Counted from the stretch's first letter, positions 1-39,305 are shown. The stretch: DNA of 39,305 bases from a virus (IMGVR_UViG_3300045988_059606), one strand, 5' to 3'. Numbers and translations: made by a program. Notes: generated by a model not told the origin, from the letters alone.

Positions 1-77
1 GTTTTATTCTTAAATTTTTGCTTATGGTTTATCCTTAACAAATGGTCTAAAAGATCGCGCGCCTTATATTGTATAGT
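1..77. repeat. Terminal direct repeat copy A (identical to 39229..39305); most likely assembler overlap of a circular molecule
   Basis: Base-by-base identity of gttttattcttaaatttttgcttatggtttatccttaacaaatggtctaaaagatcgcgcgccttatattgtatagt at both ends. Confidence 0.95.
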
Positions 78-335
78 GCCGATCTCCGCTCTTTTTTCAC
101 TTGTCTGAACTTCTCCATAAAATAAAAGGTTGTCTCCCTCGTATAGTTTAAGAACGTCTCCAACTGCTATATTTAATTTCAGTTTGGTTATGTTACTATC
201 ATTAGGCGCGTTTAGTACGGTTATTGTTGCCTCCCTTGCCGCCTGCTCTACTGATCCGCTCCATGTAGTCGAAGCAACAACATTTGTAATATTAAGTTGC
301 TTTCCGTCTTTTTTCTTCGTCCAAATAATTTTCAT
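1..335 (-). CDS. N-terminal part of XkdQ-like baseplate hub protein; continues at 39228 after removing the duplicated 77 bp (408 aa in total)
   Basis: ATG at 335..333 overlaps the TGA of the LysM gene (ATGA). My hand translation, MKIIWTKKKDGKQLNITNVVASTTWSGSVEQAAREATITVLNAPNDSNITKLKLNIAVGDVLKLYEGDNLLFYGEVQTSEKRAEIGTIQYKARDLLDHL, runs in frame into the LRINHKQKF... peptide of ORF 38337..39269. Confidence 0.8.
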   Translation of the reverse strand, partial: MKIIWTKKKDGKQLNITNVVASTTWSGSVEQAAREATITVLNAPNDSNITKLKLNIAVGDVLKLYEGDNLLFYGEVQTSEKRAEIGTIQYKARDLLDHLLRINHKQKFKNK

Positions 336-922
336 ACCGGTATCACTATCCTTTTCCCTACCGGCGGTTTTTTCTTATTGGTCATTTTGTTTTTCTTTTG
401 TATCTTTTTTGCGTTTTTACTGCTGCCGGTATATTTTTTTGCAAGTTTCGCCCATGTATCGCCTTTCTTTCCCGTTACGGTCTTGGTTTTGGTTTTCTTG
501 GTTGGTCTGCCTTTTCCTTTTGATGTGGTCGGTTTTCTGTACCGTTTTGTCTCGATCGTGTAGTAAATATCCCCGGTTTTATCGTCGTCTTTGAAACCCC
601 AAGTAAAACTCTCTATTGTGATCTGACGGTTTATGTATGGTGTAATGAGTAGTGTTGCAACCCCATTTTCTTTTATCTTTTCTATGATCTCAACGCATTT
701 TTGAGGTTTCGGGTAGCCTGCGTATTGATCGTAATACATTGGATTTTCCGGGAAATGTGCGCTAATCGGTAGCGTGTCTAGCTTGTCAAGTCCTAATAAA
801 TTGACTTCTCCGGTTTTGTTAACCGTTTCCGTGTGGTTATCCTGCCCGCCTGCGTTTTCCCAACTTGCAGGCAGAATAGGTAATCTTAACTCTCTTTTTC
901 CCTGCTTAAACCATATTTCCAC
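332..922 (-). CDS. XkdP-like tail protein with C-terminal LysM peptidoglycan-binding motif
   Basis: C-terminus is LysM-like (KKGDTWAKLAKKYTGSSKNAKKIQKKNKM...PPVGKRIVIP). Sits between tape measure and hub, as in PBSX. Confidence 0.75.
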   Translation of the reverse strand: MEIWFKQGKRELRLPILPASWENAGGQDNHTETVNKTGEVNLLGLDKLDTLPISAHFPENPMYYDQYAGYPKPQKCVEIIEKIKENGVATLLITPYINRQITIESFTWGFKDDDKTGDIYYTIETKRYRKPTTSKGKGRPTKKTKTKTVTGKKGDTWAKLAKKYTGSSKNAKKIQKKNKMTNKKKPPVGKRIVIPV

Positions 923-3499
923 TTAACACACCCCCATATTCAATGCAGTATTTTTAAGGTTTGTAGCGATCTTGTCGGCAATTTCGTCTATATCCGTCTT
1001 ATCTTTTACAATAATTTGATCTGCCAATTTTGGAATCGTAATATTTACCTCTTTCTTTCCGTCGTTCTTGCCTTTTCCTGCCTCCATTTTTGCCAATCGT
1101 CTATCTAGCATAGACAATTTGGCGTTTGACGTGTTTTTAGCAATACTTACGCTTTCGTCGTGCGGATATACCCGGGATCCTTTAGGCAAATCTACAATCT
1201 CGCCGCCCTTTTCGTTGATCTGTGCCAAACCGCCTAACCAATTAGGTGTACCCTTTGCCAATGCAGGAATTTTAGGAATGCTAAAACCAATATGTTTTCC
1301 TCCTACAAGTGGTATTCCGTCCGGTATGTCTACCGAAATACTGTTAATTCCCTCGATTGCACTATTGATAATTCCTATAACTGCGTTAATCGGAACTTTA
1401 CACAATCCGGCTAATGCTTGGAATGCTCCGCCAAATATATTTTTTACGCCCTCCCAAGCCTTTTTCCAATTGCCGGTAAATACGCCGCTTATAAAGTCTA
1501 AAATTCCGTTAAATACCTTTGTTATTCCGCTTATTACCCGTTTAATGCTACCGGCTGCGCTTTCTATTACGTTTGCTGCAATTCTAAACGCTGTTGTAAT
1601 TTCGGTTTTTACAACTGCCATTACTGCTTTTATTACAATTCCAATACCATTAAATACCGGCTTAAGTTTGTTAACAATTTTGCTTACAATGTTAAAAACA
1701 CTCGTAAATACCGTACTAAATGTTGATGCCATTTTGGATAATACCGGGCTTACCGCTTTTACTGCAAATACAAGGACGGATCCTATTACTTTTGCAATTC
1801 TGTTTATATATGGCATAACCTTAGTTATTGTGCCGCCAACAAATATAAACGCCGCCGCGAATAACTTACCTACAACCGGGATCGCCGCTTTTATAGCATT
1901 TGCTATTGTTTTTACAACCGGCGATAAGTTTTGTGCTACGGTTGCAAATGTCCTTGATATGATCGGTACGATTGTTGTTATCGTTCCTACAACTGTTTTT
2001 ATAACCGGCGATAGCGCGTTGATTGCATTTGAGATTACACCTTTTATCTGTGGCATAACGCTCGAAAATGCGTCCTTAACTCTCATTACAACCGGCTTGA
2101 TTTTATCCCAATTTTTAATTATCAGAAATGCGGCAGCCGCCACGCCTGCAAGTACCGCTATTACAATTCCTGCTGGGCTTGTTATAAGTCCTATTACTCC
2201 GCCTGCTTTGTATATTGCCGCGGTAACCTTTCCAAATGTGCTATACACTTTTCCTACCATCGATACTAATTTACCGAAAATCAGTAACGCGGGACCGATC
2301 GCCGCCGCTATTCCTGCGAATTTCATTATCATACTTACTTGTGCGTCGGATAAACCGTTAAACCAATCCGTCGCCTTTTGTACCCAACCTACCGCGTTTT
2401 TAATGTACGGTAGCAATTTATCTCCTATCGTTATCGCCGCACCCTCTAGTGCCGATTTCAATAGGGTTAATTGTCCGTTAAGGTTGTTTAACTGCGTCTG
2501 CGCCGCGTCGTTCGCCGCTCCGCCGCTATTCTTAATGCTGTCCGCAAGCGCGTTATAATCGCTCGTTGACGTATTTATAATTGCAAGCATACCCGCCATG
2601 CTTTCTTTTCCGAATAACTGTTTTGCGTATGCTGCTTGCTGATCTTGTGTCAATCCTTTAAAGGATCCTTGCAGGTTTTTAATGACGTCTCCCCAAGTTT
2701 TCATTGATCCGTCTTGGTTTACTATACTTATGCCTAAATCGTCCATAGCCGCTTTCATGTTCTTTGTTGGTGCTGCCATGTTTGATATTGCATTTTTAAG
2801 GGCGGTTCCTGCTTGGCTGCCCTTAATTCCCATATTTCCCATTACTGCCAATGAGGTTGTAACTTCGTCTATTGAATAACCCATTGTTCCGCAGATTGCG
2901 CCGCAGTATTTATAGCTTTCTCCCAATGTATCTACCGACACGTTGGCAGACGTACAAGCCTTTGTCATTACGTCCGCGAATTTTGCGCTATCTGACGCCT
3001 TATAGCCAAATGCGCTTATTGCGTCCGTCATAATATCCGACGTTCTCGCAAGATCTGTACCGGACGCGCTCGCAAGATCCAATATGCCTTTTAAGCCGTC
3101 TATGTTTTCTTTTGCCGTCCAACCTGCCATGCCGGTGTATTGCATTGCCTCGGCGCATTCCTGCGCGCTCCATGCGGTAGACGCTCCAAGATCTTTTCCT
3201 AATTGTGTTAATTTCTTAAAGTCGTCTCCGGTCGCTCCGGTAATTGCTTGTACGTTGCTCATAGCGCTTTCGTAGTCGGCAGCCGTTTTAACTGCCGCTA
3301 TTCCAACGCCCGCTATTGGTGCGGTAACGCTCTTAGTCATTGTGGATCCGGCGTTGGCTATGGTCTCCCCTGCTTTCTTTATAGATCTCCCCGCCGCTTT
3401 TGCGTTTGCGCTCATTTCTTTCATTGCTTTTAGCGTTTCTTTTGACGGTTTCGTAAACTGATCTATAAACTGAATACACGTTGAAATTACTCTACCCAT
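923..3499 (-). CDS. Tail tape measure protein
   Basis: 858 aa. TP901-type tape measure core (AMSNVQAITGATGDDFKKLTQLGKDLGASTAW) and long Ala/Ile/Val-rich repeats. Follows the chaperone pair. Confidence 0.9.
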   Translation of the reverse strand: MGRVISTCIQFIDQFTKPSKETLKAMKEMSANAKAAGRSIKKAGETIANAGSTMTKSVTAPIAGVGIAAVKTAADYESAMSNVQAITGATGDDFKKLTQLGKDLGASTAWSAQECAEAMQYTGMAGWTAKENIDGLKGILDLASASGTDLARTSDIMTDAISAFGYKASDSAKFADVMTKACTSANVSVDTLGESYKYCGAICGTMGYSIDEVTTSLAVMGNMGIKGSQAGTALKNAISNMAAPTKNMKAAMDDLGISIVNQDGSMKTWGDVIKNLQGSFKGLTQDQQAAYAKQLFGKESMAGMLAIINTSTSDYNALADSIKNSGGAANDAAQTQLNNLNGQLTLLKSALEGAAITIGDKLLPYIKNAVGWVQKATDWFNGLSDAQVSMIMKFAGIAAAIGPALLIFGKLVSMVGKVYSTFGKVTAAIYKAGGVIGLITSPAGIVIAVLAGVAAAAFLIIKNWDKIKPVVMRVKDAFSSVMPQIKGVISNAINALSPVIKTVVGTITTIVPIISRTFATVAQNLSPVVKTIANAIKAAIPVVGKLFAAAFIFVGGTITKVMPYINRIAKVIGSVLVFAVKAVSPVLSKMASTFSTVFTSVFNIVSKIVNKLKPVFNGIGIVIKAVMAVVKTEITTAFRIAANVIESAAGSIKRVISGITKVFNGILDFISGVFTGNWKKAWEGVKNIFGGAFQALAGLCKVPINAVIGIINSAIEGINSISVDIPDGIPLVGGKHIGFSIPKIPALAKGTPNWLGGLAQINEKGGEIVDLPKGSRVYPHDESVSIAKNTSNAKLSMLDRRLAKMEAGKGKNDGKKEVNITIPKLADQIIVKDKTDIDEIADKIATNLKNTALNMGVC

Positions 3500-17908: not shown

Positions 17909-18233
17909 ACCTCCATATGTTCTTATTGCATTTCTTGGCTAACTCCAACTCCGCCGCCATTCCCTCGCTTACTCCGTATCTCTCGCCAACAAATACTACC
18001 TCGCATATATTTAACAACTGCTGCCCGATCTCTAATCCTTGTTTTCTTTCCTCCGGGATCTTGTCGTTAAGCACCTGCGTTAAATATAGGTGCGGGGTTA
18101 TTGGTGTGTACCCCGCGTTAATTGCCCTTTCTGTAATCTCTCGCGCGTATCTCCTATTGCGGATCCGCTTAAATATGTTTCCTCTGTACGGACTGCACAC
18201 ATAACAATACGCCTTTGTGTTAATTCCTATCAT
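17892..18233 (-). CDS. DUF4406 / nucleoside 2-deoxyribosyltransferase-like protein
   Basis: SPYRGN...N...A...GYTPITPHLY...SEGMAAELELA pattern. Confidence 0.5.
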   Translation of the reverse strand: MIGINTKAYCYVCSPYRGNIFKRIRNRRYAREITERAINAGYTPITPHLYLTQVLNDKIPEERKQGLEIGQQLLNICEVVFVGERYGVSEGMAAELELAKKCNKNIWRFDNDR

Positions 18234-19588
18234 TTATTCGCCCTCTCTTTCATTCTTAAGGCTACGTCCTGCAATACGCTTAAGTCCTCCTCCGTCGCCC
18301 ATATTGCCAACCCTGCTATTTCCCTGGCGGTTTCTTTGATCCAATACGGTATGTCTATTTCCTCGGTCTGAACGGTTACGACTTTTGTTAAAATCAATGC
18401 GTCTACAATCTCTGTAAACTCCTTAAGGCATATTTCGCCGACTGCTGCCGCCTCGGTTCTCTTAACTGTTACCTTGTCTGTTATTTCTACTTGGCACGGT
18501 TCCCCGGTTCTTGCTGTGTATGCCGTTAATATTCCTTGGTATTCCCTTATAAAATCCGGTTTTGATGTTGTCGGATCTACCCAACCGCTCCAAAAGTCCT
18601 TGTCGAATAAGTCAGAATAGATTATTGCGTCTATGTAATACGCTATGTTCATTCCGTTGTATTCCTTGTTTGGGTTGATCTGTCCAGCTATAACAAGGCT
18701 TTTTCGGTCTGTGTTGTCTGTCTGCCTCGTTATTGTTACCTCCGTGTTTGGTTCGTCCTCTGTTTTGTTTTCTTCTGTCTTGATTTCCTGCGGTTCCGTC
18801 TTGTTTTCTTCCTGCTTGTTGCTCTCCGGCACAATACCCGGGTAATCTTCGATATTTATTTGTCCGGGTAACTGTTGCTCCGGTTCTTTGATCTGTGCCG
18901 CCTCTTTTGCCTTAATACCGCCGGTTTCTTTGTATTTCTCTAATAATTGGTGCTGCTCCTCCGGTGTCGCTCCTGCGATCTCGTTAGCTGCGGTTGTTGA
19001 GATCTTACCCGCTTTGTATTCTTCCAAAAAATCCGGTATGATATTGCGGCGGATATTGTCTAATCTGCCTATTGTACTCTTTGATGTATTTAAGATCCCG
19101 GCTATAACGTCTCTCTTTCTTCCGGGCACATTGTTGTATTTTGCGTATTCCTCTAATAACTCTCGTACCCTTTGGATCTCCTGCATTTTGCAGTAATCGG
19201 ATCTTTCCCGCTGCGTAGAATTTGTGAATATTAAAATTAACTCATTCTTAACGCCGTCCGCGTCACTCTCTACTTTGCATGGCAGCAGGGGCGAAACTTC
19301 CTTGCCCTCTGCTAATAACTCTGTTACTGCGCGGTGTCTCTTGTGTCCTGCGATAATCTCATAATCTCCGGCGTTTTCTCCTGCACTTATCTTTTTGACT
19401 ACTAAATTCTCCTGCACACCTACTAACTCTATTGTTTCCTTAAGTGCCTCGATCTCTACCGGATCCATTTCATAAAAGTTTTTATTGCTCGGGTGTAATT
19501 TCTCCGCCGGGATCTTTTTAAGTACGAAATCGTCCGCCATTTCTTTTTTACTTTCCGTGTTAAGAAAGTCCTTAATATCAAATGCCAT
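18230..19588 (-). CDS. ParB N-terminal (ParB/Srx nuclease-like) domain protein with a long unknown C-terminal region
   Basis: KIPAEKLHPSNKNFY...VQENLVV...YEIIAGHKRHRAV; GGAGG site before the ATG at 19588. Confidence 0.8.
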   Translation of the reverse strand: MAFDIKDFLNTESKKEMADDFVLKKIPAEKLHPSNKNFYEMDPVEIEALKETIELVGVQENLVVKKISAGENAGDYEIIAGHKRHRAVTELLAEGKEVSPLLPCKVESDADGVKNELILIFTNSTQRERSDYCKMQEIQRVRELLEEYAKYNNVPGRKRDVIAGILNTSKSTIGRLDNIRRNIIPDFLEEYKAGKISTTAANEIAGATPEEQHQLLEKYKETGGIKAKEAAQIKEPEQQLPGQINIEDYPGIVPESNKQEENKTEPQEIKTEENKTEDEPNTEVTITRQTDNTDRKSLVIAGQINPNKEYNGMNIAYYIDAIIYSDLFDKDFWSGWVDPTTSKPDFIREYQGILTAYTARTGEPCQVEITDKVTVKRTEAAAVGEICLKEFTEIVDALILTKVVTVQTEEIDIPYWIKETAREIAGLAIWATEEDLSVLQDVALRMKERANK

Positions 19589-19643
19589 TTGTTCGCCTCC
19601 TATATGTGCCCTACTCGGGCACTCGTCCAATAAATACTATACG

Positions 19644-19847
19644 TCACAACGTTTTTACCTCATGTAACTTTGTATCTAATCTGTACCAACCGTCTAACTC
19701 TAATACAATGTTGTTTCTGCCGGTCGCTACGCTCCTTTCGGCTATAATGTCCGTTATTTTCATTTCCCGAACTTGTCCGCCTTTTTCAAACTGTATCTTG
19801 TCGCCTATCTCATAGTGGCATTTTGCTTTAAACTTAATTACTTTCAT
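19644..19847 (-). CDS. Hypothetical protein between ParA and ParB-like genes
   Basis: 67 aa; GGAGGG ribosome-binding site. Confidence 0.5.
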   Translation of the reverse strand: MKVIKFKAKCHYEIGDKIQFEKGGQVREMKITDIIAERSVATGRNNIVLELDGWYRLDTKLHEVKTL

Positions 19848-20658
19848 TTCTGCCCTCCAAATATTCCGATACAAATTTTTTATAGTCCTGTGCGGCTCCG
19901 CATCTTACTGAATATTCTACAAGCGGCATTTTTGCAAATGTGCTTTCGCTTACTTTCTTTTCCGTCCTGCGGATCCATTGATTAAATACCGGTACATTAT
20001 GCGCCTTTAACCACTCTATGCCCTGATTGTTTACATCGTTATTCTGATACTGCGTGATGATGCACCCGGCAAAATGCAAATTCTCGTTGAAATCTTCCTG
20101 CACCTGTGCGATCTGCTCTAAAAGAATGTCTAAACCGTCAAATGAATATTGATCCATGAATACCGGCACTATTACATCGTTTGACGTTACAAGGGCGTTA
20201 ATGATGCTCATGTTAATATCGGGTGCGTTATCTATGATGCAATAATCGTATGCCTCTGTAAGTGGTAAATAGTCGAATTTCGCCCAACCGTGATCTAAAA
20301 CCTTGCTGTTACTCAATGCCTTTTTAAATCTCGTCTGCTGCTGCCTGCCGGTATCTACAATAGTTCGCAGGTTTGCCTCTAATAAATCCATATTCGCGGT
20401 TATAATGTCGATGTTTTCGTAATCTGTTTTTTTGATTATTTCCGATACATCAATATTTCTTTCTAACATCATGCGCGCAACGGTGTTTTTGTCCTCTGTG
20501 TCGTACTTCTTAAACGCCTTTGATGTGTTCCCCTGCTTGTCATTGTCGATAATTAAAACTTTCTTGTTATGTACTGCTGCCAACGTGTACGCCATGTTTA
20601 CGGCTGTCGTGGTCTTTGCTACGCCACCTTTTAGGCTGATGATTGAAATTGTTTGCAT
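19834..20658 (-). CDS. parA: ParA/Soj-family partition ATPase
   Basis: Deviant Walker A SLKGGVAKTTTAVNMAY; IIDNDKQGN. Confidence 0.9.
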   Translation of the reverse strand: MQTISIISLKGGVAKTTTAVNMAYTLAAVHNKKVLIIDNDKQGNTSKAFKKYDTEDKNTVARMMLERNIDVSEIIKKTDYENIDIITANMDLLEANLRTIVDTGRQQQTRFKKALSNSKVLDHGWAKFDYLPLTEAYDYCIIDNAPDINMSIINALVTSNDVIVPVFMDQYSFDGLDILLEQIAQVQEDFNENLHFAGCIITQYQNNDVNNQGIEWLKAHNVPVFNQWIRRTEKKVSESTFAKMPLVEYSVRCGAAQDYKKFVSEYLEGRNESN

Positions 20659-22014: not shown

Positions 22015-22881
22015 TTAAAATCCGTTCCAAACTTTTTCTTCTCTGTATAAAAAGCATTGTTTGTCGTTGCATTCCTCCGGTAACAAGTCCTTTATTCTTT
22101 TTCGTGACTTGCTTATATAAAGTTTTGACCTTATTTTCGTGTCCTTTTGTTTGTCCTCCAACATTTGGTCAAATTCAAGCGTTTTTTCATACTCTTCTTT
22201 ATTGTTCTTTTTTATGAATTTAAAAAAATAATTTGTATGAAAAGGACAAAAACAACACGCGCTCGCCTTTGTTTCAAGCCCCCATATGTCCTTTATGTAT
22301 GCGTAATTGTCTTTTCTCTCTAACCCCATTTCGCAAAGCGGGAATTTATTTACAAACATTTTATGCGGGTTTTCTTTGCATCTCCTTTCTTCCTCTTTTG
22401 AAAACCCCAAGTGCATTTCATGCGCTTTTATGTCCTCCGGCTTTGTTCGTTGTCCTTTTTTGTATCCTAGTAACTGCTGCCTTACGAATTTTTGCATAAT
22501 GCTTATTTTGTAATCTAGCGTACAATTTCGCATCATTTTTCCTTTTTTTCCGCTTTCGTCCACTGACCAAAAAGGTATTGAGACAACGCGTTTGTTTCCA
22601 AAATCTTTTAGGTAGTCCTTATATAGATTGCTTTCTAAAATATAAAACGGTATTCCTGCCCATTCGCAGGCTTGTTGTATGAAATATACCTGCGAATATA
22701 CCCAAGCGGGTTCTAGCCCTAGATCGCAAAATAATATAGCGTCGTAGATTGGTACTTTTTCCGTGTATTTAAACTCGAACTTTTCCGCCGCTATCCTCTT
22801 ATCTCGTATTAACTTGTTTGCGCAAGCCATAAGCGCCAATGCTGTGCTTTGCATTCCTGCCCCGCATGATAATATTTTCAC
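22015..22881 (-). CDS. PAPS reductase-like (adenine nucleotide alpha-hydrolase superfamily) protein
   Basis: N-terminal PP-loop-like LSCGAGMQSTALALM; RNCTLDYKI; C-terminal Cys cluster ACCFCPFH. Confidence 0.5.
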   Translation of the reverse strand: MKILSCGAGMQSTALALMACANKLIRDKRIAAEKFEFKYTEKVPIYDAILFCDLGLEPAWVYSQVYFIQQACEWAGIPFYILESNLYKDYLKDFGNKRVVSIPFWSVDESGKKGKMMRNCTLDYKISIMQKFVRQQLLGYKKGQRTKPEDIKAHEMHLGFSKEEERRCKENPHKMFVNKFPLCEMGLERKDNYAYIKDIWGLETKASACCFCPFHTNYFFKFIKKNNKEEYEKTLEFDQMLEDKQKDTKIRSKLYISKSRKRIKDLLPEECNDKQCFLYREEKVWNGF

Positions 22882-24289: not shown

Positions 24290-25036
24290 CTATCCGCACC
24301 CGCCGCCGGGATCCGGTAACTTAATCATTGTGTAATGTTGTACCGGTCTGCCGTTAAATGGGTTAATACCGTTGTAAACGGTTTCTTTGTCTATGTAATA
24401 ACCTTTTTTCGGTTTTGGATCCTCTAACCACTTCTCGGCTTTCTTTACGATCGTTACTTTTGTTACCGGTTTTATTAAATTCCTGCTGCAACTGTAACGC
24501 TGTCTTGCGCCTCCGTCGTGTTCCTTGTATGTCTTGTCTGTCTCCTTGATGAAATACGCCGCTAACTCCTTATACTGCCCGGTATCGTCTAACGGTGTGA
24601 AATGTGGGCTACCCCACTTCCAACAATCGCGAACGATTTTATTTACGTTTGCCTCGATCCCATTTAGTATTAAATGGTGGTGGATCGCTTTATTTTTGTA
24701 CTCGGTTGTAATTATGTACTTTAGTTCCTCGCCTCGTTTCTTATATTCCCGGCGTAAAGTCCTTAAGAATTTTGTTAACCTCGTCCGCGCCTCTGCCGGA
24801 TCCGGTCTTAGATCTTTTTTGTAGGTTAAGACTAAGTGGTAATCACCGTAACCGAAATTAGCGTTTATAAGACGTCTTAGCCTTGCCTCTGCGTTCTTCC
24901 GGTTTACTTTCTCCATTTCCTCTGCGGTAGGTTTTTCTTTCCCTCCTCTTGGTCTGTGATCTCCTATCCTCTTGGAATAACTCTTTATTACCTCTACCGT
25001 CTTACCTGCCGTTATCTCTGTTCTGTAATACGGCAT
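24290..25036 (-). CDS. HUH-type rolling-circle replication initiator (Rep)
   Basis: The three motifs occur in order: HLVLTY, IHHHLIL (HUH) and AAYFIKET (YxxK). I preferred the ATG at 25036 (GAGG site). The listed ORF extends to a TTG at 25204. Confidence 0.6.
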   Translation of the reverse strand: MPYYRTEITAGKTVEVIKSYSKRIGDHRPRGGKEKPTAEEMEKVNRKNAEARLRRLINANFGYGDYHLVLTYKKDLRPDPAEARTRLTKFLRTLRREYKKRGEELKYIITTEYKNKAIHHHLILNGIEANVNKIVRDCWKWGSPHFTPLDDTGQYKELAAYFIKETDKTYKEHDGGARQRYSCSRNLIKPVTKVTIVKKAEKWLEDPKPKKGYYIDKETVYNGINPFNGRPVQHYTMIKLPDPGGGCG

Positions 25037-25113
25037 ATCCTTATACCTCGTTTCTGTCCTAAAGTTAATAGTTTGAACAAGTCCTAAAAGCGCTTGTTTC
25101 CGCGCCTCTTTTC

Positions 25114-25142
25114 TTGACTTTTGGCACAAAACTTGGTATAAT
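25114..25142 (+). promoter_or_regulatory. Near-consensus sigma-70 promoter on the plus strand (antisense to the operon)
   Basis: TTGACT (25114..25119), 17-nt spacer, extended -10 TGgTATAAT (-10 at 25137..25142). Confidence 0.7.
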
Positions 25143-25148
25143 GATTGA

Positions 25149-25226
25149 TAGATTATTGGTGTTGCAAATTTTCTTTTTATACCAAGTTTGCAGCATGGCG
25201 GCAACTCTCCCGGTTGCCGCTTTTTT
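25149..25226 (+). ncRNA. Candidate antisense small RNA of about 78 nt (countertranscript to the Rep leader)
   Basis: Bracketed by the promoter above and an intrinsic terminator. No plus-strand ORF with a ribosome-binding site is present. Confidence 0.5.
25198..25226 (+). terminator. Rho-independent terminator on the plus strand
   Basis: Stem gcggcaac (25198..25205) / gttgccgc (25213..25220), 7-nt loop, then TTTTTT (25221..25226). Confidence 0.75.
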
Positions 25227-28543: not shown

Positions 28544-28572
28544 ATACTCTTTTTTAGAAAGTTGGTGTGATT

Positions 28573-29658
28573 ATGGATAATAAAAAACCGAAACGGCGCG
28601 CAATGCGTCTACCAAACGGCTATGGATCCGTAAAGAAATTAAGCGGTAATCGCCGCAATCCGTGGATCGTTACCAAAACGGACGGTTGGGAAATAACCCC
28701 CGATACCGGTAAAACGATACAAAAGAAAATTATTATAGGCTACTACCCTAGCCGCCAAGCCGGTTTGCAGGCTCTCGCAGAATACAACGCGGATCCTTAC
28801 GACGTGAACGCGGCAAAAATTACTTTTTCTGATGTGTACGCTCGTTGGTCTGAACGAAAATTTAAGGAAGTATCAGAAAGTAACGTTAAGGGTTATAAAG
28901 CTGCTTATAAATTGTGTACCTCTCTGTATGATATGCGTATGATAGATATTAAACTATCGCACCTGCAAGACGTCGTAGACAATTCCGGCAAAAATACGCC
29001 TACCCTTAGAAAGTTAAAAGTTTTGTTAGGGCAAATGTTTGAGTATGCCGTAATCAATGAGATTATAACCAAAGATAAAAATATTGTTGAATATGTAGAC
29101 ATAAAAGCCGCGGGCAATCCAAATAAGATAGATCGCACGCCGTTTAGTGATGATGAAATACAGAAAGTTTGGGATAATGTAGACTACAACGAATATATGA
29201 CCGTAATACTTATGCTTATATATTCCGGCGTTCGTGTCTCTGAATTGTTGGAACTTAAAAAAGAGGACGTACACTTAGACGAAAAGTGGTTTAATGTACG
29301 CCATGCCAAAACGCAGGCGGGTATAAGGGCGGTTCCGATCGCCGATAAGACGTATAAATTTTTTAAGTATTGGTATAACAAGAATGATTGTGAATATCTC
29401 TTAAGCACGCCGGACGGCGCACACTTTGAGTATAGAAATTACTATGATAGTTATTGGAAACCTTTATTAAAAGAATTGAATATTAAGCACCGCCCACACG
29501 ACACGCGGCACACTTGTATTAGCCTCTTGGCTGCTGCTAAAGTATATCAGACAACTATTAAGAAAATTGTAGGGCACTCCGGTAGCCAAACTCTGACCGA
29601 ACGTGTTTATACGCATTTAGATATACAAGAATTATTGGACGCAATCAACCTTATATAG
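28573..29658 (+). CDS. int: Tyrosine integrase with N-terminal arm-binding domain
   Basis: LPNGYGSVKKLSGNRRNPW at the N-terminus; catalytic region RPHDTRHTCISLL...GHS...YTH. Confidence 0.9.
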   Translation: MDNKKPKRRAMRLPNGYGSVKKLSGNRRNPWIVTKTDGWEITPDTGKTIQKKIIIGYYPSRQAGLQALAEYNADPYDVNAAKITFSDVYARWSERKFKEVSESNVKGYKAAYKLCTSLYDMRMIDIKLSHLQDVVDNSGKNTPTLRKLKVLLGQMFEYAVINEIITKDKNIVEYVDIKAAGNPNKIDRTPFSDDEIQKVWDNVDYNEYMTVILMLIYSGVRVSELLELKKEDVHLDEKWFNVRHAKTQAGIRAVPIADKTYKFFKYWYNKNDCEYLLSTPDGAHFEYRNYYDSYWKPLLKELNIKHRPHDTRHTCISLLAAAKVYQTTIKKIVGHSGSQTLTERVYTHLDIQELLDAINLI

Positions 29659-29778: not shown

Positions 29779-29876
29779 CTTGATTTTTTGCGGCTTCGTA
29801 AATTCGCTTGTTATTATCTCTTTGTTAACGCTTGCATAACTTCAAACCGCATAAATACGGTGTTTTCGCCTTATGA

Positions 29877-31106: not shown

Positions 31107-31640
31107 TTAACCCTGCTTTTCTGTGTAGTGGTTGCAACGCTCTTTAATGCTGCATTCGTCGCAATTTTGATTTTTGCATACAATATCATTGATCTTGTGA
31201 TCTAATTTGTCGTCCGCGATTTTAAGGATCTTTACTAGCCAAATCGGTATTTTTTCCGGCATGATAACGTATAGATTTTCTAAAATGCTTGTTAACTCGT
31301 TAATGAGTAGCACTGCCACGGTGTACCAACCGATATAAATACTAAATCCAAGATCAAATCCGATCTGTACGCCTAACTCTTTAATTCCGTAACCTACCAT
31401 AAACGCTACGCCGATAAGTACGAAATACATAGCTTTTTTTATAATCCCTTGTAACCCTGTTTTGCTGCTCCATTCTTTCAAGAAAAATGCAGCTTTGATC
31501 CAACCAGTCAAATAATCGACTACAACGGCTATCATAAATAAAATAAGCAACGTTGGCACTCTGTTAAAAAGCGCTGCCGCTGCCGTAATAAATGCCGACA
31601 TTGTAAACCCTGCCCCTCCTATCTTGTCTGTAATTTCCAT
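31107..31640 (-). CDS. Holin (toxin-secretion/phage-lysis holin family) with Cys-rich C-terminal tail
   Basis: VVVDYLTGWIKAAF...SSKTGLQGIIKKAMYFVLI. Three hydrophobic segments. I preferred the ATG at 31640 (GGAG site). Confidence 0.8.
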   Translation of the reverse strand: MEITDKIGGAGFTMSAFITAAAALFNRVPTLLILFMIAVVVDYLTGWIKAAFFLKEWSSKTGLQGIIKKAMYFVLIGVAFMVGYGIKELGVQIGFDLGFSIYIGWYTVAVLLINELTSILENLYVIMPEKIPIWLVKILKIADDKLDHKINDIVCKNQNCDECSIKERCNHYTEKQG

Positions 31641-32770
31641 GTGTCCTGCTCCTTTCTTTGTTCTTCCTGCAATGCTCTTTCTCTGCTTGCGTCTGTACAA
31701 TGCAAAACAAAGCCGCTTATTACCTTTTCTTTAAGCCCTTTATTTGTGCAATGCGAAATTAAGCCGAAATAACTTTGCATTGTTGCGTTTACTTCCTTAA
31801 GTGTCATTTCTCCCGCCTCGTATGCTTTTATCACGTACTTAATACGTACCCGCATACGCCGCACGGTGTCTTTTCTTAGTTTGATTTCGTCTTTATTTAT
31901 GATAAAGCCTACAAACTCTATATTGTGTGTTGTTGGGTTTATTGCCGTTTTGTTGTTAAGGTTAAGTTTCAAAACCTCCAATAAGAATTGCTCTATTTTT
32001 TCTTTGAACTCTACCAGCTCTTTGTAATCGTCATGCAAAATTATTATATCGTCCATATATCTAACGACATAATGTAAATGCAATTCGTGTTTTATGTATT
32101 GGTCTAACTCATTTAGATAAATATTCGCAAACATTTGTGAGGTTAAATTACCTATTGGCATACCTTTGTCGAATAGCATATCTTTAGGATCTATTTCCGA
32201 CGGATCCGCCCCAATCGGCAGCCCAAACGCTCTTTTATTGGAATTTATTATCTTTTCCAATAAGGCTAATAAGTCCTTGTCCTTTATTTTCTTTGCCAAA
32301 ATTTGTAGCAAAACTTCGTGATCCACGCGATAAAAGAACTTGGAAATGTCAAGTTTCAAGTAGTAATACTGTTTCTCTTTGCGGTCTGTCTGCCTCAACC
32401 AATATTGCAGGCGGGCAGCTGCTTTCTCTCTGCCCTTTTCTTTCCTGCAACCGTAACTATCTTCAATGTATATCTTTTCGTATAGTGGGTTAAGTTTTCT
32501 ATAAACCGCCCATTGCAAGACGCGATCCCTATATTGCAACGCCATTATTAAACGTTTCTTTGGAACTGTGATATAAATAAGTCTGTAACCGCGTTGCTTG
32601 TATCGTTTCGCTTGTAAATCCTCGTACAGATCTATTAAGTTTTCGTCCAATTCCATATTGAAACGCATTACCTCGTTTCGCTCGGTTTTACATTCCTTTG
32701 CGTCTATGTTGGCTCCGCATAAGTTTTCGTAGTCTATAATTTCTTTGTATGTTATGTTAAATGTTTTCAT
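31619..32770 (-). CDS. DGR-type reverse transcriptase
   Basis: LPIGNLTSQMFANIYL (DGR motif-4 signature, IGxxxSQ) and VRYMDDIIIL (YxDD); adjacent to TR and avd. Confidence 0.9.
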   Translation of the reverse strand: MKTFNITYKEIIDYENLCGANIDAKECKTERNEVMRFNMELDENLIDLYEDLQAKRYKQRGYRLIYITVPKKRLIMALQYRDRVLQWAVYRKLNPLYEKIYIEDSYGCRKEKGREKAAARLQYWLRQTDRKEKQYYYLKLDISKFFYRVDHEVLLQILAKKIKDKDLLALLEKIINSNKRAFGLPIGADPSEIDPKDMLFDKGMPIGNLTSQMFANIYLNELDQYIKHELHLHYVVRYMDDIIILHDDYKELVEFKEKIEQFLLEVLKLNLNNKTAINPTTHNIEFVGFIINKDEIKLRKDTVRRMRVRIKYVIKAYEAGEMTLKEVNATMQSYFGLISHCTNKGLKEKVISGFVLHCTDASRERALQEEQRKEQDTWKLQTR

Positions 32771-32924
32771 AGAAAAATAGCGCCGCGCGTTACACTCCTC
32801 GACTTGCTACTAAATGTATTCGCAGCAATGTTTATTTTGCCTTTCGGCAGGGGAAAGCGCCCCTTATCTTCTCTCCGTGCTGCACGCCGGTATCGTGCCC
32901 CGGCGTGTTCTGACGTAATGAGAA

Positions 32925-33035
32925 AAGCGCAGAAAAAGCCCAAGTTGTCGTTGGCGTTGGATCGCGGGTTGTTCAAATTGCCGTTAGCCTCCCCGGCATT
33001 GCCCCCATTACCATAATTGCCGCCGCGGTTAAGCA
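32925..33035 (-). repeat. DGR template repeat (TR), non-coding
   Basis: 111-bp alignment to VR with 16 mismatches, all at plus-strand T (adenine on the coding strand). Contains 11 AAY codons in the VR frame. Confidence 0.9.
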
Positions 33036-33060
33036 ACCTAACGACGCTAACCCCATTTCT

Positions 33061-33465
33061 TTATTTTAATTTGTTAAGCCATGATCCCAAGATTTTACCT
33101 ATCTCTATAAGTTGTGCGCTCCAATGTAATTGTTGCTTTGACGCTATCAAAATAACTCTATTATCATATCCCGGATCTGACGCAATTAGTATTAGCTGCC
33201 GCAGGTTCTTTAACTCTGCGTCTGCCTCCTCTAATACTGCCTTTTTGTGTTCCTTTGCCATTGCTCGATTTATCAACCGCATTGCCTCAAACATTGACTT
33301 TTCAATTTGCGCCCCAATAGCGTTGCCAATTCTATATTTTCTCGGGAATTGTCCATTATTTAGCACACCGTTTCCGTAACTTATCATTTCGCGCATTTTC
33401 TTATAAAGTAATAGATCCTCTTTCGGATCCGGCGGTTTTGCATTTGCTCTGAAATTTCTTTGCAT
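33061..33465 (-). CDS. avd: Accessory variability determinant (Avd-like four-helix-bundle protein)
   Basis: 134 aa, basic and helical (FPRKYRIGNAIGAQIEKSMFEAMRLINRAM). Lies between the target gene and TR. Confidence 0.75.
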   Translation of the reverse strand: MQRNFRANAKPPDPKEDLLLYKKMREMISYGNGVLNNGQFPRKYRIGNAIGAQIEKSMFEAMRLINRAMAKEHKKAVLEEADAELKNLRQLILIASDPGYDNRVILIASKQQLHWSAQLIEIGKILGSWLNKLK

Positions 33466-33480
33466 ATTTCAACTCCAAAT

Positions 33481-33505
33481 AGGCTGCGCCCTCCCGGGCG
33501 CGCCT
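33481..33505 (-). other. GC-rich hairpin downstream of VR / target stop codon
   Basis: Arms 33481..33491 and 33496..33505 form 10 bp with one bulged T. The 4-nt loop reads GGGA on the coding strand. Confidence 0.55.
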
Positions 33506-33517
33506 GCAAGATAAAAG

Positions 33518-34570
33518 TTACTTAAGATCCTCCGGATCATAATAAGCGCAGAAAAAGCCCAAGTAGTCGTAGGCGATGGATCGCGGGCCGTCCAAAGAGC
33601 CGCGAGCCTCCCCGGCATGGCCCCCAGCACCATAATCGCCGCCGCGGAAAAGCACCCTCTCTCCGTTGTTTCTGAACCAAAAACCGCCGTGTCCTGTTGC
33701 ACTTGTCGCCATTGGGTAAATAGCAAGTGCCTTAAGTACATCCGGAATGTTAACGCCGCTCTTTACTTTCATGCTTGCAAAGTCGCAATATCCATACGCG
33801 TTATCATTTTCCTGCTGATGTTCTATCGTTGTAGAAATATAGAAATTTCCGGTACCTGCTGCCGGTGTTCCCGAATAGTCAAATTTAAGTGTTCCTGCCG
33901 TTCCCGGCGCAACCAATGATCCGTCCGGTAAAATTGCTTTCCACGCTGCGCTATTGGCGCTCTGATCCGTTCCGGTAATTGCCGCGTTATTGTCCGCGAT
34001 AACTTGTAATTCTCCGTTGTAAAGTCTGAAACCTCCAAGCCATTTGTTTACATTCCCTACAAAGTCGTTAATACCGCCTCCCTGCATATCTGTACTCCAT
34101 GACTTGTCGCCGGTTCCGGTTAACGTTCTATTTCCTCCTGCTGACATTACGCCTCTTTCGTATGCGTGTACGTGGCTCTTGCCCTGCGCGGTATTCCCTC
34201 TTGGGTGTATATCTGCCGCTGTTAACAGATTGTGCACTAACCCCCATTCCGCAGCCGTCATAAGGTGGAAACCTGCGCCGTTATTTTCGCAATATTGCTT
34301 TGCTTGATCGAAATTAACGTTTACCGCCGGTTCTTGGTTTGGCAGGCTATACGCTCTACCGCCTTTTACCGTTGAAATGTATGCTGGTAAATAGATCTTT
34401 GGCAAGATTTTGTCGTTAATCTTAAATGCCGGGTGTGGTACGTGTGCGGATCCGATACCCAAATCGTCCATGTATCTTAATGCGTATTCCTCGAATACAA
34501 GTGGCAGTCCTTTATCGTTCAAAATTATTTTCTGTTTTGCCTGCGCCTTAAGATCTTCGTAATTACTCAT
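33518..34570 (-). CDS. DGR target: tail-fibre-associated receptor-binding protein with FGE-sulfatase/C-type-lectin fold
   Basis: PAVNVNFDQAKQYCENNGAGFHLMTAAEWG; C-terminal VR. GGAGG site before the ATG at 34570. Confidence 0.85.
   Translation of the reverse strand: MSNYEDLKAQAKQKIILNDKGLPLVFEEYALRYMDDLGIGSAHVPHPAFKINDKILPKIYLPAYISTVKGGRAYSLPNQEPAVNVNFDQAKQYCENNGAGFHLMTAAEWGLVHNLLTAADIHPRGNTAQGKSHVHAYERGVMSAGGNRTLTGTGDKSWSTDMQGGGINDFVGNVNKWLGGFRLYNGELQVIADNNAAITGTDQSANSAAWKAILPDGSLVAPGTAGTLKFDYSGTPAAGTGNFYISTTIEHQQENDNAYGYCDFASMKVKSGVNIPDVLKALAIYPMATSATGHGGFWFRNNGERVLFRGGDYGAGGHAGEARGSLDGPRSIAYDYLGFFCAYYDPEDLK
33544..33654 (-). repeat. DGR variable repeat (VR) at the 3' end of the target gene
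   Basis: Offset of 619 nt from TR. Encodes LFRGGDYGAGGHAGEARGSLDGPRSIAYDYLGFFCA, versus LNRGGNYGNGGNAGEANGNLNNPRSNANDNLGFFCA in TR. Confidence 0.9.
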
Positions 34571-34913
34571 TGATATATACCTCCTCAATACTCCAAAGTG
34601 TTAATGTGCATTTTGAAATGTCGAACGCTCTTTCTTTCGGTACTGTTCCCATTTCTCCGGTTTCTTCGTTTTCCTGCTCTACGTAGTCGTACTCCTTTGG
34701 TGGAATTGTTACTTGTGCAACATAATTTTTACCCAATCCCATTACCAAGTTTCCGTCGTCGTCTGCGCAAATATCTTTTGTTATTTCTGTGTCACTCTGA
34801 TATTTAGGCAATCTAATAGCAATCTGATCTCCTAACCAAAGTGTTGTGCCCTCCACTTCGTAGCCGATCTTTTCGCCCTTGTTTTTCTCAATTACCTTGA
34901 TTGTTTTAGACAT
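34563..34913 (-). CDS. Hypothetical tail-fibre-associated protein
   Basis: 116-aa ORF translationally coupled to the target gene (ATGAGTAA overlap). Confidence 0.55.
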   Translation of the reverse strand: MSKTIKVIEKNKGEKIGYEVEGTTLWLGDQIAIRLPKYQSDTEITKDICADDDGNLVMGLGKNYVAQVTIPPKEYDYVEQENEETGEMGTVPKERAFDISKCTLTLWSIEEVYINE

Positions 34914-35403
34914 TATACATACCTCCTAATGCAAAATACTTAACCGTTACTCCTGCTGCCGGGCAATCTTCTACCTCGATCTTAAAGCCGTTTAACTGTC
35001 TGTCTTTAACTCTGATCGCTTTTCCTTGCACTACGTCGTCGCAATACGGAATAACCATATAGTCTAATGTGTTGCGCTGCGTTTTAAGCGCTACTGTTGC
35101 GCTTGCGGTGTTAAATGGGTATTTCTCCGTTGTTGAGATTTTGACGGATCCAACCTCTACGTATGTATTGGCTAAATCTCTGTTTGCCTGCCTCATTTGA
35201 ACCGCCAAAAGATCTGCCATAACGATTGCCTCGTTTACTCCGTGTTCTAATGGGTTAAACGTCGCCCCACTTAACGGCGTTCCCGGCTCAATGATTTCTC
35301 CGGGCATTGGTAATAACGTTATAGTGCCGTCGCTATTCTGTACCATTTTGTAAGTATTACTTAACGACGTCCTGCGATCCTTAAACTCCAAAAAATCAAA
35401 CAT
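34906..35403 (-). CDS. Short tail fibre / fibre-connector protein
   Basis: GTPLSGATFNPLEHGVNEA resembles the GTPLnaxnLNxxexG motif found in Firmicute prophage fibres. Confidence 0.5.
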   Translation of the reverse strand: MFDFLEFKDRRTSLSNTYKMVQNSDGTITLLPMPGEIIEPGTPLSGATFNPLEHGVNEAIVMADLLAVQMRQANRDLANTYVEVGSVKISTTEKYPFNTASATVALKTQRNTLDYMVIPYCDDVVQGKAIRVKDRQLNGFKIEVEDCPAAGVTVKYFALGGMYNV

Positions 35404-35416
35404 TGCGCCTATCCTC

Positions 35417-35710
35417 CTATCCGTCTGTTTCTGTTACCGAAAAGGTAATCTTAATGCCTATCGTTGTTGTTGCTAAAGTGTCTTTCTTTGTGTTGTATGA
35501 TCTGCTTACTAACACTTTGTTGTTGACGTCGTAAAGCGTTGCATTTGTGATCGTGCCGTTAATACTGTCATTTCCGTAAATATACACTGTAAAGCCGTCT
35601 GTATTGCCTACGATCTGCCCTATCGTGGCGTCGTAGGTTTTGCCCCCTATGGTATAGGTTGCTCGTTTAATGATCTGTTTTGCATATGCTATTAACTCGT
35701 CTTTTAACAC
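35417..35710 (-). CDS. Hypothetical tail protein
   Basis: 97-aa ORF in the baseplate/fibre module. Confidence 0.5.
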   Translation of the reverse strand: MLKDELIAYAKQIIKRATYTIGGKTYDATIGQIVGNTDGFTVYIYGNDSINGTITNATLYDVNNKVLVSRSYNTKKDTLATTTIGIKITFSVTETDG

Positions 35711-38336: not shown

Positions 38337-39305
38337 TTATTTCTTTACATTTGGGCTATATACATAGCCGCTTTTTCCTCCTGCGCTGCCGTGATACCAC
38401 GCCGTACCGCTTACATATTCGTACTTTCCGTCGCATACGAATTTATCGCCTTTTTTTAGCGTTGTAACACTTTTTGCGCTCCTGCCTGCCGCTGCACGCA
38501 TGATAGATTTTGTTGTTATTACCGTATAGGTTCCCGCTATGCTTTTGCTGCTGCCTTTTCCGGTTTTCTTCTTTTTCTCCGTGCTTTCCTCGTCTTTTTT
38601 ATCCATAACGTTCTTAAAGGATAATTCTAAACTCATTTTGTGTTGTCCGTTCTCCCATGTATGCGTATCGTTTTGGATCCAAAACACGCCTTTAAGCCCG
38701 GTTGCTGCGTCATGTACCTTAACCGCGTTTCCTGCTATACATTTTATATTTCCGCTTATCGCGTCAACATTCACTTTCTTTTCTATGCCGTTTAGCATAT
38801 TCTTAGCCGCTGTTTGCGCGTTTACGCCTTTCTCTTTTGTATATATACTTTGATATATACCATAGCGTTTTATGTGCCCGGCATTCTTCACGACGCCTAC
38901 TTGTTTTCCCTTGTCCGTGTATATTTTTACTTGGTCTACCATATTCTCTATACTCTCCTCATAAGACGCGGCAGACAAGTTTTTATACTCGTCCAATTCA
39001 TAATTGCTTACTGTTGTTCCTTTTGTCTTTACGCAAAATTTCTTTCCGTTCATGTATGCCATGTACTTTTTTCCGGTTGACTTAGCCGCTTTTGTGTATG
39101 CAGTCATAATAATATCGTATAGGCTACTATCGTCTATAATCAATTTCTTAATAACTTTCTTTGTTGCTACAATGGATCCGGTCGTTATTCCATACTTTTT
39201 GCATATCTCCTTTGTAATAGCCTCTGCCGTTTTATTCTTAAATTTTTGCTTATGGTTTATCCTTAACAAATGGTCTAAAAGATCGCGCGCCTTATATTGT
39301 ATAGT
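38337..39305 (-). CDS. C-terminal part of XkdQ-like hub protein (continuation of 1..335) ending in an SH3b-like domain
   Basis: The frame is continuous across the circular junction. C-terminus GTYTVITTKSIMRAAAGRSAKSVTTLKKGDKFVCDGKYEYVSGTAWYHGSAGGKSGYVYSPNVKK. Confidence 0.8.
   Translation of the reverse strand, partial: TIQYKARDLLDHLLRINHKQKFKNKTAEAITKEICKKYGITTGSIVATKKVIKKLIIDDSSLYDIIMTAYTKAAKSTGKKYMAYMNGKKFCVKTKGTTVSNYELDEYKNLSAASYEESIENMVDQVKIYTDKGKQVGVVKNAGHIKRYGIYQSIYTKEKGVNAQTAAKNMLNGIEKKVNVDAISGNIKCIAGNAVKVHDAATGLKGVFWIQNDTHTWENGQHKMSLELSFKNVMDKKDEESTEKKKKTGKGSSKSIAGTYTVITTKSIMRAAAGRSAKSVTTLKKGDKFVCDGKYEYVSGTAWYHGSAGGKSGYVYSPNVKK
39229..39305. repeat. Terminal direct repeat copy B
   Basis: Identical to 1..77. 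Confidence 0.95.

Follow-up and report, generated by a model that had tools for sequence, protein, structure and literature searches.

The 39,305-nucleotide (nt) stretch of viral DNA analyzed here (IMGVR_UViG_3300045988_059606; called the window below, always meaning the whole stretch) contains a diversity-generating retroelement (DGR) whose parts all lie on the minus strand, in the order target gene, avd (accessory variability determinant), template region (TR), spacer RNA and reverse transcriptase (RT) gene; the variable region (VR) lies inside the target gene, towards its 3' end. With as much certainty as sequence analysis permits, this element is a complete DGR that is active in nature. 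We consider the best explanation, with a probability of about 0.9, to be that it is a complete DGR of the Bordetella-phage type that ends the tail/baseplate operon of a temperate myovirus of the PBSX type infecting gut Lachnospiraceae, and that would operate by analogy with the DGR of phage BPP-1. It is a textbook case of a known system and not a new type of element.

An earlier note on this DNA had proposed four co-oriented minus-strand parts (target gene, avd-like gene, TR and RT gene), and the open reading frame (ORF) listing places all four exactly where that note had put them. It had also named beforehand three outcomes that would speak against a DGR: an RT that groups with those of group II introns or retrons, an Avd-like protein for which no four-helix bundle is predicted, and a failure of alignment to recover a TR/VR pair. 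What we found is an RT whose closest solved relative is a DGR RT, an Avd modelled as a four-helix bundle and a TR/VR pair that an aligner finds and that is adenine-specific; none of the three checks refutes the DGR reading.

The TR/VR pair

The repeat finder returned a single direct repeat, 115 nt long and 85% identical, between positions 32925-33039 and 33544-33658. Its 111-nt core (32925..33035 versus 33544..33654) contains 16 mismatches, and adenine stands in the downstream copy, the TR, at every one of them (16 of 16). Given that 26 of the 111 nt of the TR are adenines, 16 randomly placed mismatches would all coincide with an A with a hypergeometric probability of 6.5e-13. The TR lies outside the target gene, separated by a 154-nt spacer from the start codon of the RT gene located downstream; the VR occupies, as had been proposed, a C-terminal part of the target, and encodes residues 308-336 of 350. 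No second VR was found in the whole window, in which BLAST with the TR matches the TR and the VR only.

All 11 AAY codons of the TR are altered in the VR, and mutagenesis of their adenines cannot create a stop codon; the theoretical protein diversity that can be derived from the TR is 5.5e14. In DGRs, the initiation-of-mutagenic-homing sequence (IMH) is expected at the 3' end of the VR and differs from its counterpart at the TR (IMH*). In the window, TR and VR share their final 20 nt, none of which is an adenine, and the sequences diverge directly after them.

Variation among natural copies

The hypervariability of the target, which the earlier note had expected, can be seen directly in public metagenomes. 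We compared 13 copies with identical or near-identical RTs at the DNA level, namely the window, L001, L002 and the ten metagenome contigs L006-L015 (L-numbers denote the related loci and contigs compared with the window). The VR is distinct in every one of them, and 161 of the 162 TR/VR mismatches are located at TR adenines, opposite which the VRs have 180 A, 70 G, 58 T and 33 C. Of the 12 other copies, 8 have exactly the TR of the window. Private non-adenine changes in the TR are mirrored in the VR of the same copy, as is the case for three substitutions in L001 (window positions 33003, 32989 and 32966, at an offset of 619), two in L006 and one each in L009 and L010. At the sequence level, such mirrored changes are the signature of TR-to-VR copying that took place after the lineages had split.

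L007 and L008 differ from the window by 3 nt in about 6,100 nt outside the TR and VR, and by 12-13 nt in the 111 nt of the VR, which is a local excess of roughly 200-fold. An exact sequence look-up found the Avd on 399 contigs, the RT on 240 and the target on only 3, and the 90%-identity cluster of the target has 398 distinct members. Among fifteen public variants of the target, the 11 Asn-templated positions show 6-10 different residues each, the TAT-templated residue is only C, S or Y, and the GAC-templated residue only A, D, G or V. The residues at the variable positions are exactly the repertoire of adenine mutagenesis, with K, E, Q, M and W being absent. This population-level evidence indirectly supports a one-way transfer from TR to VR accompanied by diversification (mutagenic retrohoming).

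Other 90%-identity clusters of the target family have 8,521 (P0167), 617 (P0149) and 327 (P0153) distinct members, and several related gut-phage lineages seem to carry equally hyperdiversified target homologues. The locus L004/L021 (IMGVR_UViG_3300045988_003176; 93% identical) has two deletions, equivalent to window positions 33433..32694 and 32562..31752, that have removed the TR and the spacer together with most of avd and of the RT gene but have left the target with its VR; this DGR has decayed, and its variable region is frozen. In L046, L059, L068 and L095, the TR/VR pairs contain 5-14 non-adenine mismatches, and these loci may be DGRs drifting after inactivation, or their repeats may have been mis-paired.

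Table 1. Positions of the DGR parts, RNA and DNA structures and other features in the window
Feature	Position	Strand	Remarks
Target gene	33518..34570	-	350 amino acids (aa); DGR target, TaqVP-type C-type-lectin/FGE-fold variable protein; ORF, homology, model
VR	33544..33654	-	Encodes residues 308-336 of the 350-aa target; ends 24 nt before the stop codon
Hairpin/cruciform candidate	33481..33505	-	GC-rich; 10-bp stem with one bulge, 4-nt GGGA loop (33495..33492); DNA fold
avd	33061..33465	-	134 aa; Pfam bAvd PF22296, 69.7 bits (threshold 40)
Bracketing duplex, 5' strand	33043..33054	-	GGGGTTAGCGTC; avd-TR intergenic region, right behind the avd stop and right ahead of the TR
TR	32925..33035	-	111 nt; 26 adenines; 11 AAY (Asn) codons in the VR reading frame
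Structured spacer RNA, Rfam RT-14 (RF02921)	32783..32926	-	cmscan 61.5 bits (gathering score 48.1); model positions 1-144 of 144
Helix P1 of RT-14	32924..32918 with 32875..32869	-	RT-14 model
Stem-loop of RT-14	32907..32883	-	9 bp; 8 of 8 pairs with covariation
Bracketing duplex, 3' strand	32850..32861	-	GGCGCTTTCCCC; RT-14 segment modelled as unpaired linker
GAAA hairpin of RT-14	32849..32838	-	Followed by the long 3' hairpin
RT gene	31619..32770	-	383 aa; IGNLTSQ 206-212, YMDD 238-241; Pfam RVT_1, 90.7 bits
Three small ORFs	34563..35710	-	97, 165 and 116 aa; flanked by the Gp48-like baseplate gene and the target gene
Tyrosine integrase	28567..29658	+	

Reverse transcriptase and Avd

The best match of the RT in the PDB is chain A of 8ub7 (125 bits, E 3.4e-35, in two aligned segments), which bears the title 'Diversity-generating retroelement (DGR) ribonucleoprotein reverse transcriptase' in the fold-search library, whereas group II intron RTs reach at best 72 bits (E 4e-19) and retron-type RTs at most 67 bits in the PDB search. 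In the alignment, IGNLTSQ of the window RT corresponds to IGSLTSQ in 8ub7_A and to QGGPLSP in the group II intron RT, and YMDD stands opposite YMDD. Of the two motifs that had been reported for this protein, YMDD is present as described, and the one given as LPIGNLTSQ reads MPIGNLTSQ (residues 204-212). The counterparts of residues R74 and I181 of the BPP-1 RT are also retained. The NCBIfam search was uninformative for the RT: there was no DGR RT model among its matches, and the best of them was a group II intron RT/maturase model with 135.6 bits, for which the cut-off is 300.

A tblastn search with the RT in the phage collection gave 103 matching records, Bordetella phages included. The cassette was inspected in three of these phages (Saumur, Lagaffe and BalMu-1), and a DGR is present in each. 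Vibrio phage VP585, ANMV-1 and crAss-like phages, which were also matched, we take to be DGR carriers. At its 3' end, the RT gene overlaps the holin gene with its last 22 nt.

The AlphaFold2 model of Avd contains four helices (pLDDT 84), which Foldseek matches to the Avd chains of 8ub7 (8ub7_E) and to 4dwl, entitled 'Avd molecule from Bordetella bacteriophage DGR', with TM values of 0.70-0.75 / 0.86-0.91. A phmmer search of Avd against the PDB returned nothing at E up to 1, and the assignment therefore needed the Pfam match, which is above threshold (Table 1), and the fold search. Together these bear out the Avd-like helical protein that had been proposed.

A structured spacer RNA and a duplex that brackets the TR

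The spacer that separates the TR from the RT gene contains a full-length match (144 nt) to the Rfam family RT-14. More than 520 relatives of the target family are present in IMG/VR, and most loci with enough downstream sequence carry adenine-specific TR/VR pairs. RT-14 scored at or above its gathering score in 29 of 40 such loci tested, and also in L002, L005 and BalMu-1, giving 32 related DGR loci. In the window and all 26 tabulated related loci, RT-14 starts within 4 nt of the end of the TR/VR homology. The RT-14 helices covary: 89% of the cells are paired, and compensatory changes are found in 23 of the 26 pairs. No intron RNA family was matched in the region 32500..33800. Weinberg et al. 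2017 (PMC5737381) placed the RT-10 motif in the TR-RT interval of BPP-1 and speculated that the remaining RT motifs serve other DGRs, RT-10 being the only one that they tied to a DGR; a literature search combining RT-14 and DGR found no paper.

A 12-bp long-range duplex (33054..33043 with 32861..32850) encloses the TR. One of its strands is the linker that RT-14 models as unpaired; the partner of this linker, located 5' of the TR, is not covered by the RT-14 model. The same pairing is the best RNAduplex result in nearly all of 27 related loci, and on alignment A4 (23 distinct sequences) 97.5% of the cells pair, with compensatory changes in 10 of the 12 pairs. None of 500 shuffles reached the observed values, and slid registers came nowhere near them. 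Another candidate, a pairing of the TR-upstream region with the segment between RT-14 and the RT start, was seen in a single-sequence fold only and had a z of about 0 in the 27 loci; as it was not conserved, it was dropped in favour of the pairing with the RT-14 linker.

Handa et al. (bioRxiv 10.1101/2023.10.23.563531) reported a duplex joining the sequences upstream and downstream of the TR in 207 of 278 DGRs, with an average of 13 bp, and an Avd-binding stem-loop of ~9 bp just 3' of the TR. The 12-bp duplex and the stem-loop 32907..32883 correspond to these RNA elements; Avd binding and a stop function are, by analogy, their putative roles. In BPP-1, the TR:spacer duplex sets the priming adenosine A56 beside the first templated base, TR G117 (bioRxiv 10.1101/2023.10.23.563531). 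Helix P1 of the window begins at the first nucleotide past the TR/VR homology, and the last two bases of its spacer strand are adenosines (32870, 32869). By analogy with BPP-1, the cDNA may be primed from A32869 or A32870, with templating starting from about 32925. Around the TR, 13 promoter-like sites were found versus 8.6 ± 3.2 expected, which is not above chance.

The RT start codon (32770) has no recognisable Shine-Dalgarno sequence and lies 12 nt (32771..32782) past the long 3' hairpin of RT-14; translation of the RT may be weak or coupled to the RNA structure. An 89-aa ORF (32767..33036, minus strand) is open across the TR and the entire structured spacer, and ends in ATGA overlapping the RT start codon. 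A small indel in some public variants joins it to the RT, resulting in gene calls of 458-472 aa (P0017, P0020, P0021). Because the stretch is a covarying RNA, this ORF is probably a gene-calling artefact, and it is almost certainly not a gene.

The hairpin downstream of the VR

The GC-rich hairpin 33505..33481 begins 13 nt past the stop codon of the target gene. Homing of the BPP-1 DGR requires such a hairpin/cruciform (Guo et al., PMC3240598), and those of phage DGRs have GC stems of 7-10 bp and 5'-GRNA loops, at a distance of 4-34 bp from the VR (PMC3240598). Equivalent hairpins in L005, Saumur and BalMu-1 have other stem sequences and GACA or GGTA loops. The hairpin of the window has no T-run and was not called in a terminator scan. 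It is a probable target-site recognition element.

The target protein and its neighbours

The target gene probably starts at the ATG at 34570, given the GAGGAGG ribosome-binding site in front of it; public gene calls on ten contigs also give a target of 350 aa. The start overlaps the stop of the preceding tail-module ORF by 8 nt and, judged from this arrangement, the target is translationally coupled to that ORF.

A phmmer search matched residues 22-337 of the target to TaqVP (PDB 5vf4) with E 1e-54 and 34% identity. The AlphaFold2 model of the target (pLDDT 88.8, pTM 0.91) matches 5vf4 in Foldseek with TM values of 0.89/0.82, and its PHROG match is phrog_2889 (E 8e-88). The FGE-sulfatase/C-type-lectin signature that the earlier note had read from the sequence holds up in part: the homology to TaqVP and the structural match establish a C-type-lectin (CLec)/FGE-type fold, and the match to Pfam FGE-sulfatase itself, with 21.7 bits, stays just under its threshold of 23.3.

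The cassette comes after the baseplate genes and before the holin gene, as the earlier note had it; it lies 3' of Baseplate_J, the Mu Gp48-like gene and the three small conserved ORFs, and 5' of the holin and endolysin genes. The three small ORFs match phrog_7177, phrog_9010 and phrog_8734, all of them function-unknown, and they and the DGR cassette occur in the same order in Saumur, Lagaffe and BalMu-1. They are putative adaptors for the variable protein.

We infer that the target is a receptor-binding protein and that its variation would switch tropism, on the grounds that it closes the baseplate operon and is coupled to the ORF before it, and from the conserved synteny and the analogy with Mtd of BPP-1.

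Proposed mechanism and alternative explanations

By analogy with BPP-1, a transcript would span the avd-TR intergenic region, the TR and the 144-nt RT-14 spacer. When folded, its TR would be bracketed by the 12-bp duplex, with P1 starting directly after the TR/VR homology. The RT-Avd complex would bind this RNA, and the spacer strand of P1 would prime the cDNA in cis, with 32869 or 32870 as the candidate adenosine. The TR would be copied faithfully except at adenines, where any base is possible. The cDNA would then take the place of the VR in the 3' end of the target gene, with the 3' segment that is identical and lacks adenines, and the downstream hairpin with its GGGA loop, as guides. This would cause random substitution at the 11 Asn-templated positions and a few further ones on the ligand-binding face of the TaqVP-type protein, allowing some 5.5e14 variants. 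The target is most likely located on the baseplate, where it would bind the host surface, and its variation would alter the host range.

Several points weigh against this reading as a whole. The Avd scores below the cut-off of the NCBIfam model DivGenRetAVD (62.6 versus 80), and the hairpin is located 38 nt from the end of the VR and the homology, slightly outside the 4-34 nt range reported for phage DGRs. The window copy forms 10 of the 12 pairs of the bracketing duplex, the two others being U-U mismatches. The target lacks a match to an annotated tail-fibre family, except for a weak one to phrog_5302 ('tail protein', E 1.6e-9). Moreover, TaqVP (5VF4) is monomeric and has no surface-targeting signal, and its authors suggested that it possibly acts inside the cell; homology to TaqVP alone is therefore no proof that the target is located in the tail. 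The last two points leave some room for the improbable alternative that the DGR is real and active, but that the diversified protein binds a non-receptor ligand (host-derived glycans, mucus) or acts inside the lysogen, without any tropism switching. That the strong PHROG matches of the target are to families of unknown function only, and that no tail-fibre domain was found in it by Pfam/NCBIfam searches, would fit this alternative as well. However, the target is the last gene of the baseplate operon and its start overlaps the previous ORF, and the block formed by the baseplate gene, the three small ORFs, the target and the DGR is kept in four distantly related myoviruses, all of which argues against this alternative. 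Depositors have named homologues of the target 'antireceptor' and 'BPP-1 major tropism-determinant-like protein', although these labels are annotation only.

The DGR of the window could also be a recently inactivated relic, the variation among its relatives having been made earlier or by other copies. L004/L021, which has lost its TR along with a part of avd and the bulk of the RT gene, shows that decay occurs in the lineage, and the many non-adenine mismatches in L046, L059, L068 and L095, together with the two U-U mismatches of the window, could be read in the same way. We nevertheless regard this as very unlikely. Every ORF of the window element is intact, and its RT and Avd are found unchanged on the 240 and 399 contigs mentioned above; its TR is the same as in 8 of 12 other copies, and its VR deviates from the TR at adenines only. 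Furthermore, copies with only 3 nt differences elsewhere still have distinct VRs. As for the possibility that the RT is one of a group II intron, a retron or a defence system, and the 111-nt repeat an unrelated duplication, we regard it as already refuted. The NCBIfam match to a group II intron RT/maturase would be in line with it, as would the name 'retron-type reverse transcriptase' given to the RT in public annotations, but that match (135.6 bits) is far under its cut-off, and the DGR RT of 8ub7 outscores every group II and retron RT in the PDB. In addition, the motif contains SQ and not SP, the spacer is RT-14 and is free of matches to intron RNA families, and a plain duplication cannot generate adenine-only mismatches together with mirrored TR/VR changes.

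An extension of the main reading, whose chances of being right or wrong we judge to be about even, is that RT-14 serves a large lineage of Bacillota-phage DGRs as their spacer RNA, in which the linker provides one strand of the 12-bp duplex enclosing the TR, and the first helix fixes both the cDNA start and the priming adenosine (32869 or 32870), and that the TaqVP-type protein and the three small ORFs constitute the whole receptor-binding apparatus of PBSX-type tails, TaqVP itself being a phage tail protein. If true, the cDNA start site would be fixed by P1, and TaqVP would have to be reinterpreted as a phage tail protein.

The phage genome and its host

Since the window begins and ends with the same 77 nt (1..77 and 39229..39305), it is a circular assembly and represents a complete phage genome of ~39.2 kb. 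The tail operon crosses the window ends, with a YqbQ-like gene at 38337..39269 and a LysM gene and tape measure at 332..3499. The tail module contains, in this order, genes for the sheath, DUF2001 tube, XkdN-like chaperone, tape measure, LysM, YqbQ/XkdQ-like, DUF2577, sheath initiator, Baseplate_J and Mu Gp48-like proteins, and is of the PBSX type according to its Pfam/PHROG matches, in agreement with the contractile tail that had been predicted. The genome also encodes a terminase, a portal and a major head protein (Pfam/PHROG). The Gp48-like gene is followed by the three small ORFs, the DGR, the holin gene and a CHAP+SH3 endolysin gene, and the tyrosine integrase gene lies on the other strand. 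Given this gene content, 'PBSX-like contractile-tailed temperate phage' is a fair description.

In the integrated copy L011, a flanking gene encodes a protein identical to a ThiF family protein of Eubacterium ventriosum ATCC 27560, and an identical Avd in NCBI is named from a Roseburia faecis metagenome-assembled genome (MAG). Both indicate a Lachnospiraceae host, which is in keeping with the Firmicute host of the earlier note. An RT scan of one-genome-per-species contigs gave a single MAG, of Acetivibrio sp., with 75% identity, and a homologue search with a host protein from the flank brought up hardly any named organisms; it was the exact look-up of that protein that named a host. A nucleotide search of the phage collection found two short patches only.

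The circular phage and the ten integrated copies cease to be homologous at about 29811..29829 (about 6442..6460 in L006-L015), between a 96-aa gene and the integrase side. At least five neighbourhoods occur beyond this junction (AAA_21 ATPase; Na/H antiporter; Zeta-toxin/Fic-like; HTH_Crp plus NUDIX; ThiF); the phage either uses several integration sites or lies in a region that is variable. No tRNA genes were found at the prophage junction. ParA-like, ParB-like and replication-initiator genes (18230..20658 and 24290..25204) are present alongside the tyrosine integrase gene, which hints at an optional plasmid-like prophage state. The early region contains a PAPS-reductase-like gene (22015..22881, minus strand; phrog_424, category moron / auxiliary metabolic).

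Significance and comparison with known systems

DGRs in temperate gut phages are well documented, and DGRs of this architecture have already been described and annotated in gut Firmicute prophages. The value of the present element is that it is an unusually clean natural example. What is new here is the demonstration of activity at the population level, the recognition that the DGR spacer of this lineage is RT-14, and the covarying duplex around the TR; these additions refine known mechanisms and reveal no new one. They link RT-14, so far an unexplained Rfam family, to DGR function, and, supported by covariation, extend to a distant lineage the RNA elements described from the cryo-electron microscopy structure of the Bordetella phage DGR (the bracketing duplex and the stem-loop just 3' of the TR). 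The phage is often met in human-gut metagenomes, with its exact RT in 428 blocks of the collection, its hosts are cultivable commensals (as judged from the Eubacterium ventriosum flank and the Roseburia faecis label), and its diversification is visible from public assemblies alone. It is therefore a good candidate system for the study of DGR-driven host-range change in Gram-positive gut bacteria.

The element shares with the prototype, the BPP-1 DGR (mtd-avd-TR-brt), the gene order and orientation, a VR at the 3' end of a C-type-lectin-fold gene of the tail module, an Avd that is a four-helix bundle, an RT with IGxxxSQ and YMDD motifs, and substitutions at adenines only. Both also have a GC hairpin with a GRNA loop past the target stop codon, a structured TR-RT spacer and a duplex across the TR. 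However, the RTs are only distantly related (125 bits, in two segments, to 8ub7_A), the target is of the TaqVP type and its Foldseek match to Mtd is insignificant (E 0.2 or worse), and the spacer RNA is RT-10 in BPP-1 and RT-14 in the window. The host of the window phage is, moreover, a Gram-positive Lachnospiraceae, and its virion is predicted from the genes to have a contractile tail of the PBSX type.

The DGR of Thermus aquaticus that contains TaqVP (5VF4) has a full-length homologue of the target, with the FGE-type C-type-lectin fold and a C-terminal VR, and arranges its parts as the window does (target, avd, TR, RT). TaqVP is derived from a thermophile and is possibly intracellular, whereas its homologue in the window sits within a phage baseplate operon; because of this location, the gene context suggests that TaqVP-type proteins are phage tail proteins.

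The nearest parallels in layout are Clostridium phage Saumur (L016), Faecalibacterium phage FP_Lagaffe (L017) and Bacillus phage BalMu-1, which have the baseplate gene, three ORFs, a target of ~350 aa, Avd, TR, RT and adjoining lysis genes, as well as adenine-specific TR/VR pairs of 111-120 nt. In the records of Lagaffe and BalMu-1, Avd and RT are already annotated as DGR parts. Yet the identity with the window is only 48-51% for the RT and 34-36% for the target (Saumur and Lagaffe), and nucleotide similarity is confined to short patches. RT-14 abuts the TR in BalMu-1 as it does in the window, whereas in the spacers of Saumur and Lagaffe it stays under the gathering score despite clear adenine-specific TR/VR pairs, and the spacer RNA of these two phages may be divergent or belong to a different family. 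The window spacer, in turn, matches Rfam RT-14 (RF02921) over its full length and above the gathering score, and the helices of this family covary in the lineage to which the window belongs.

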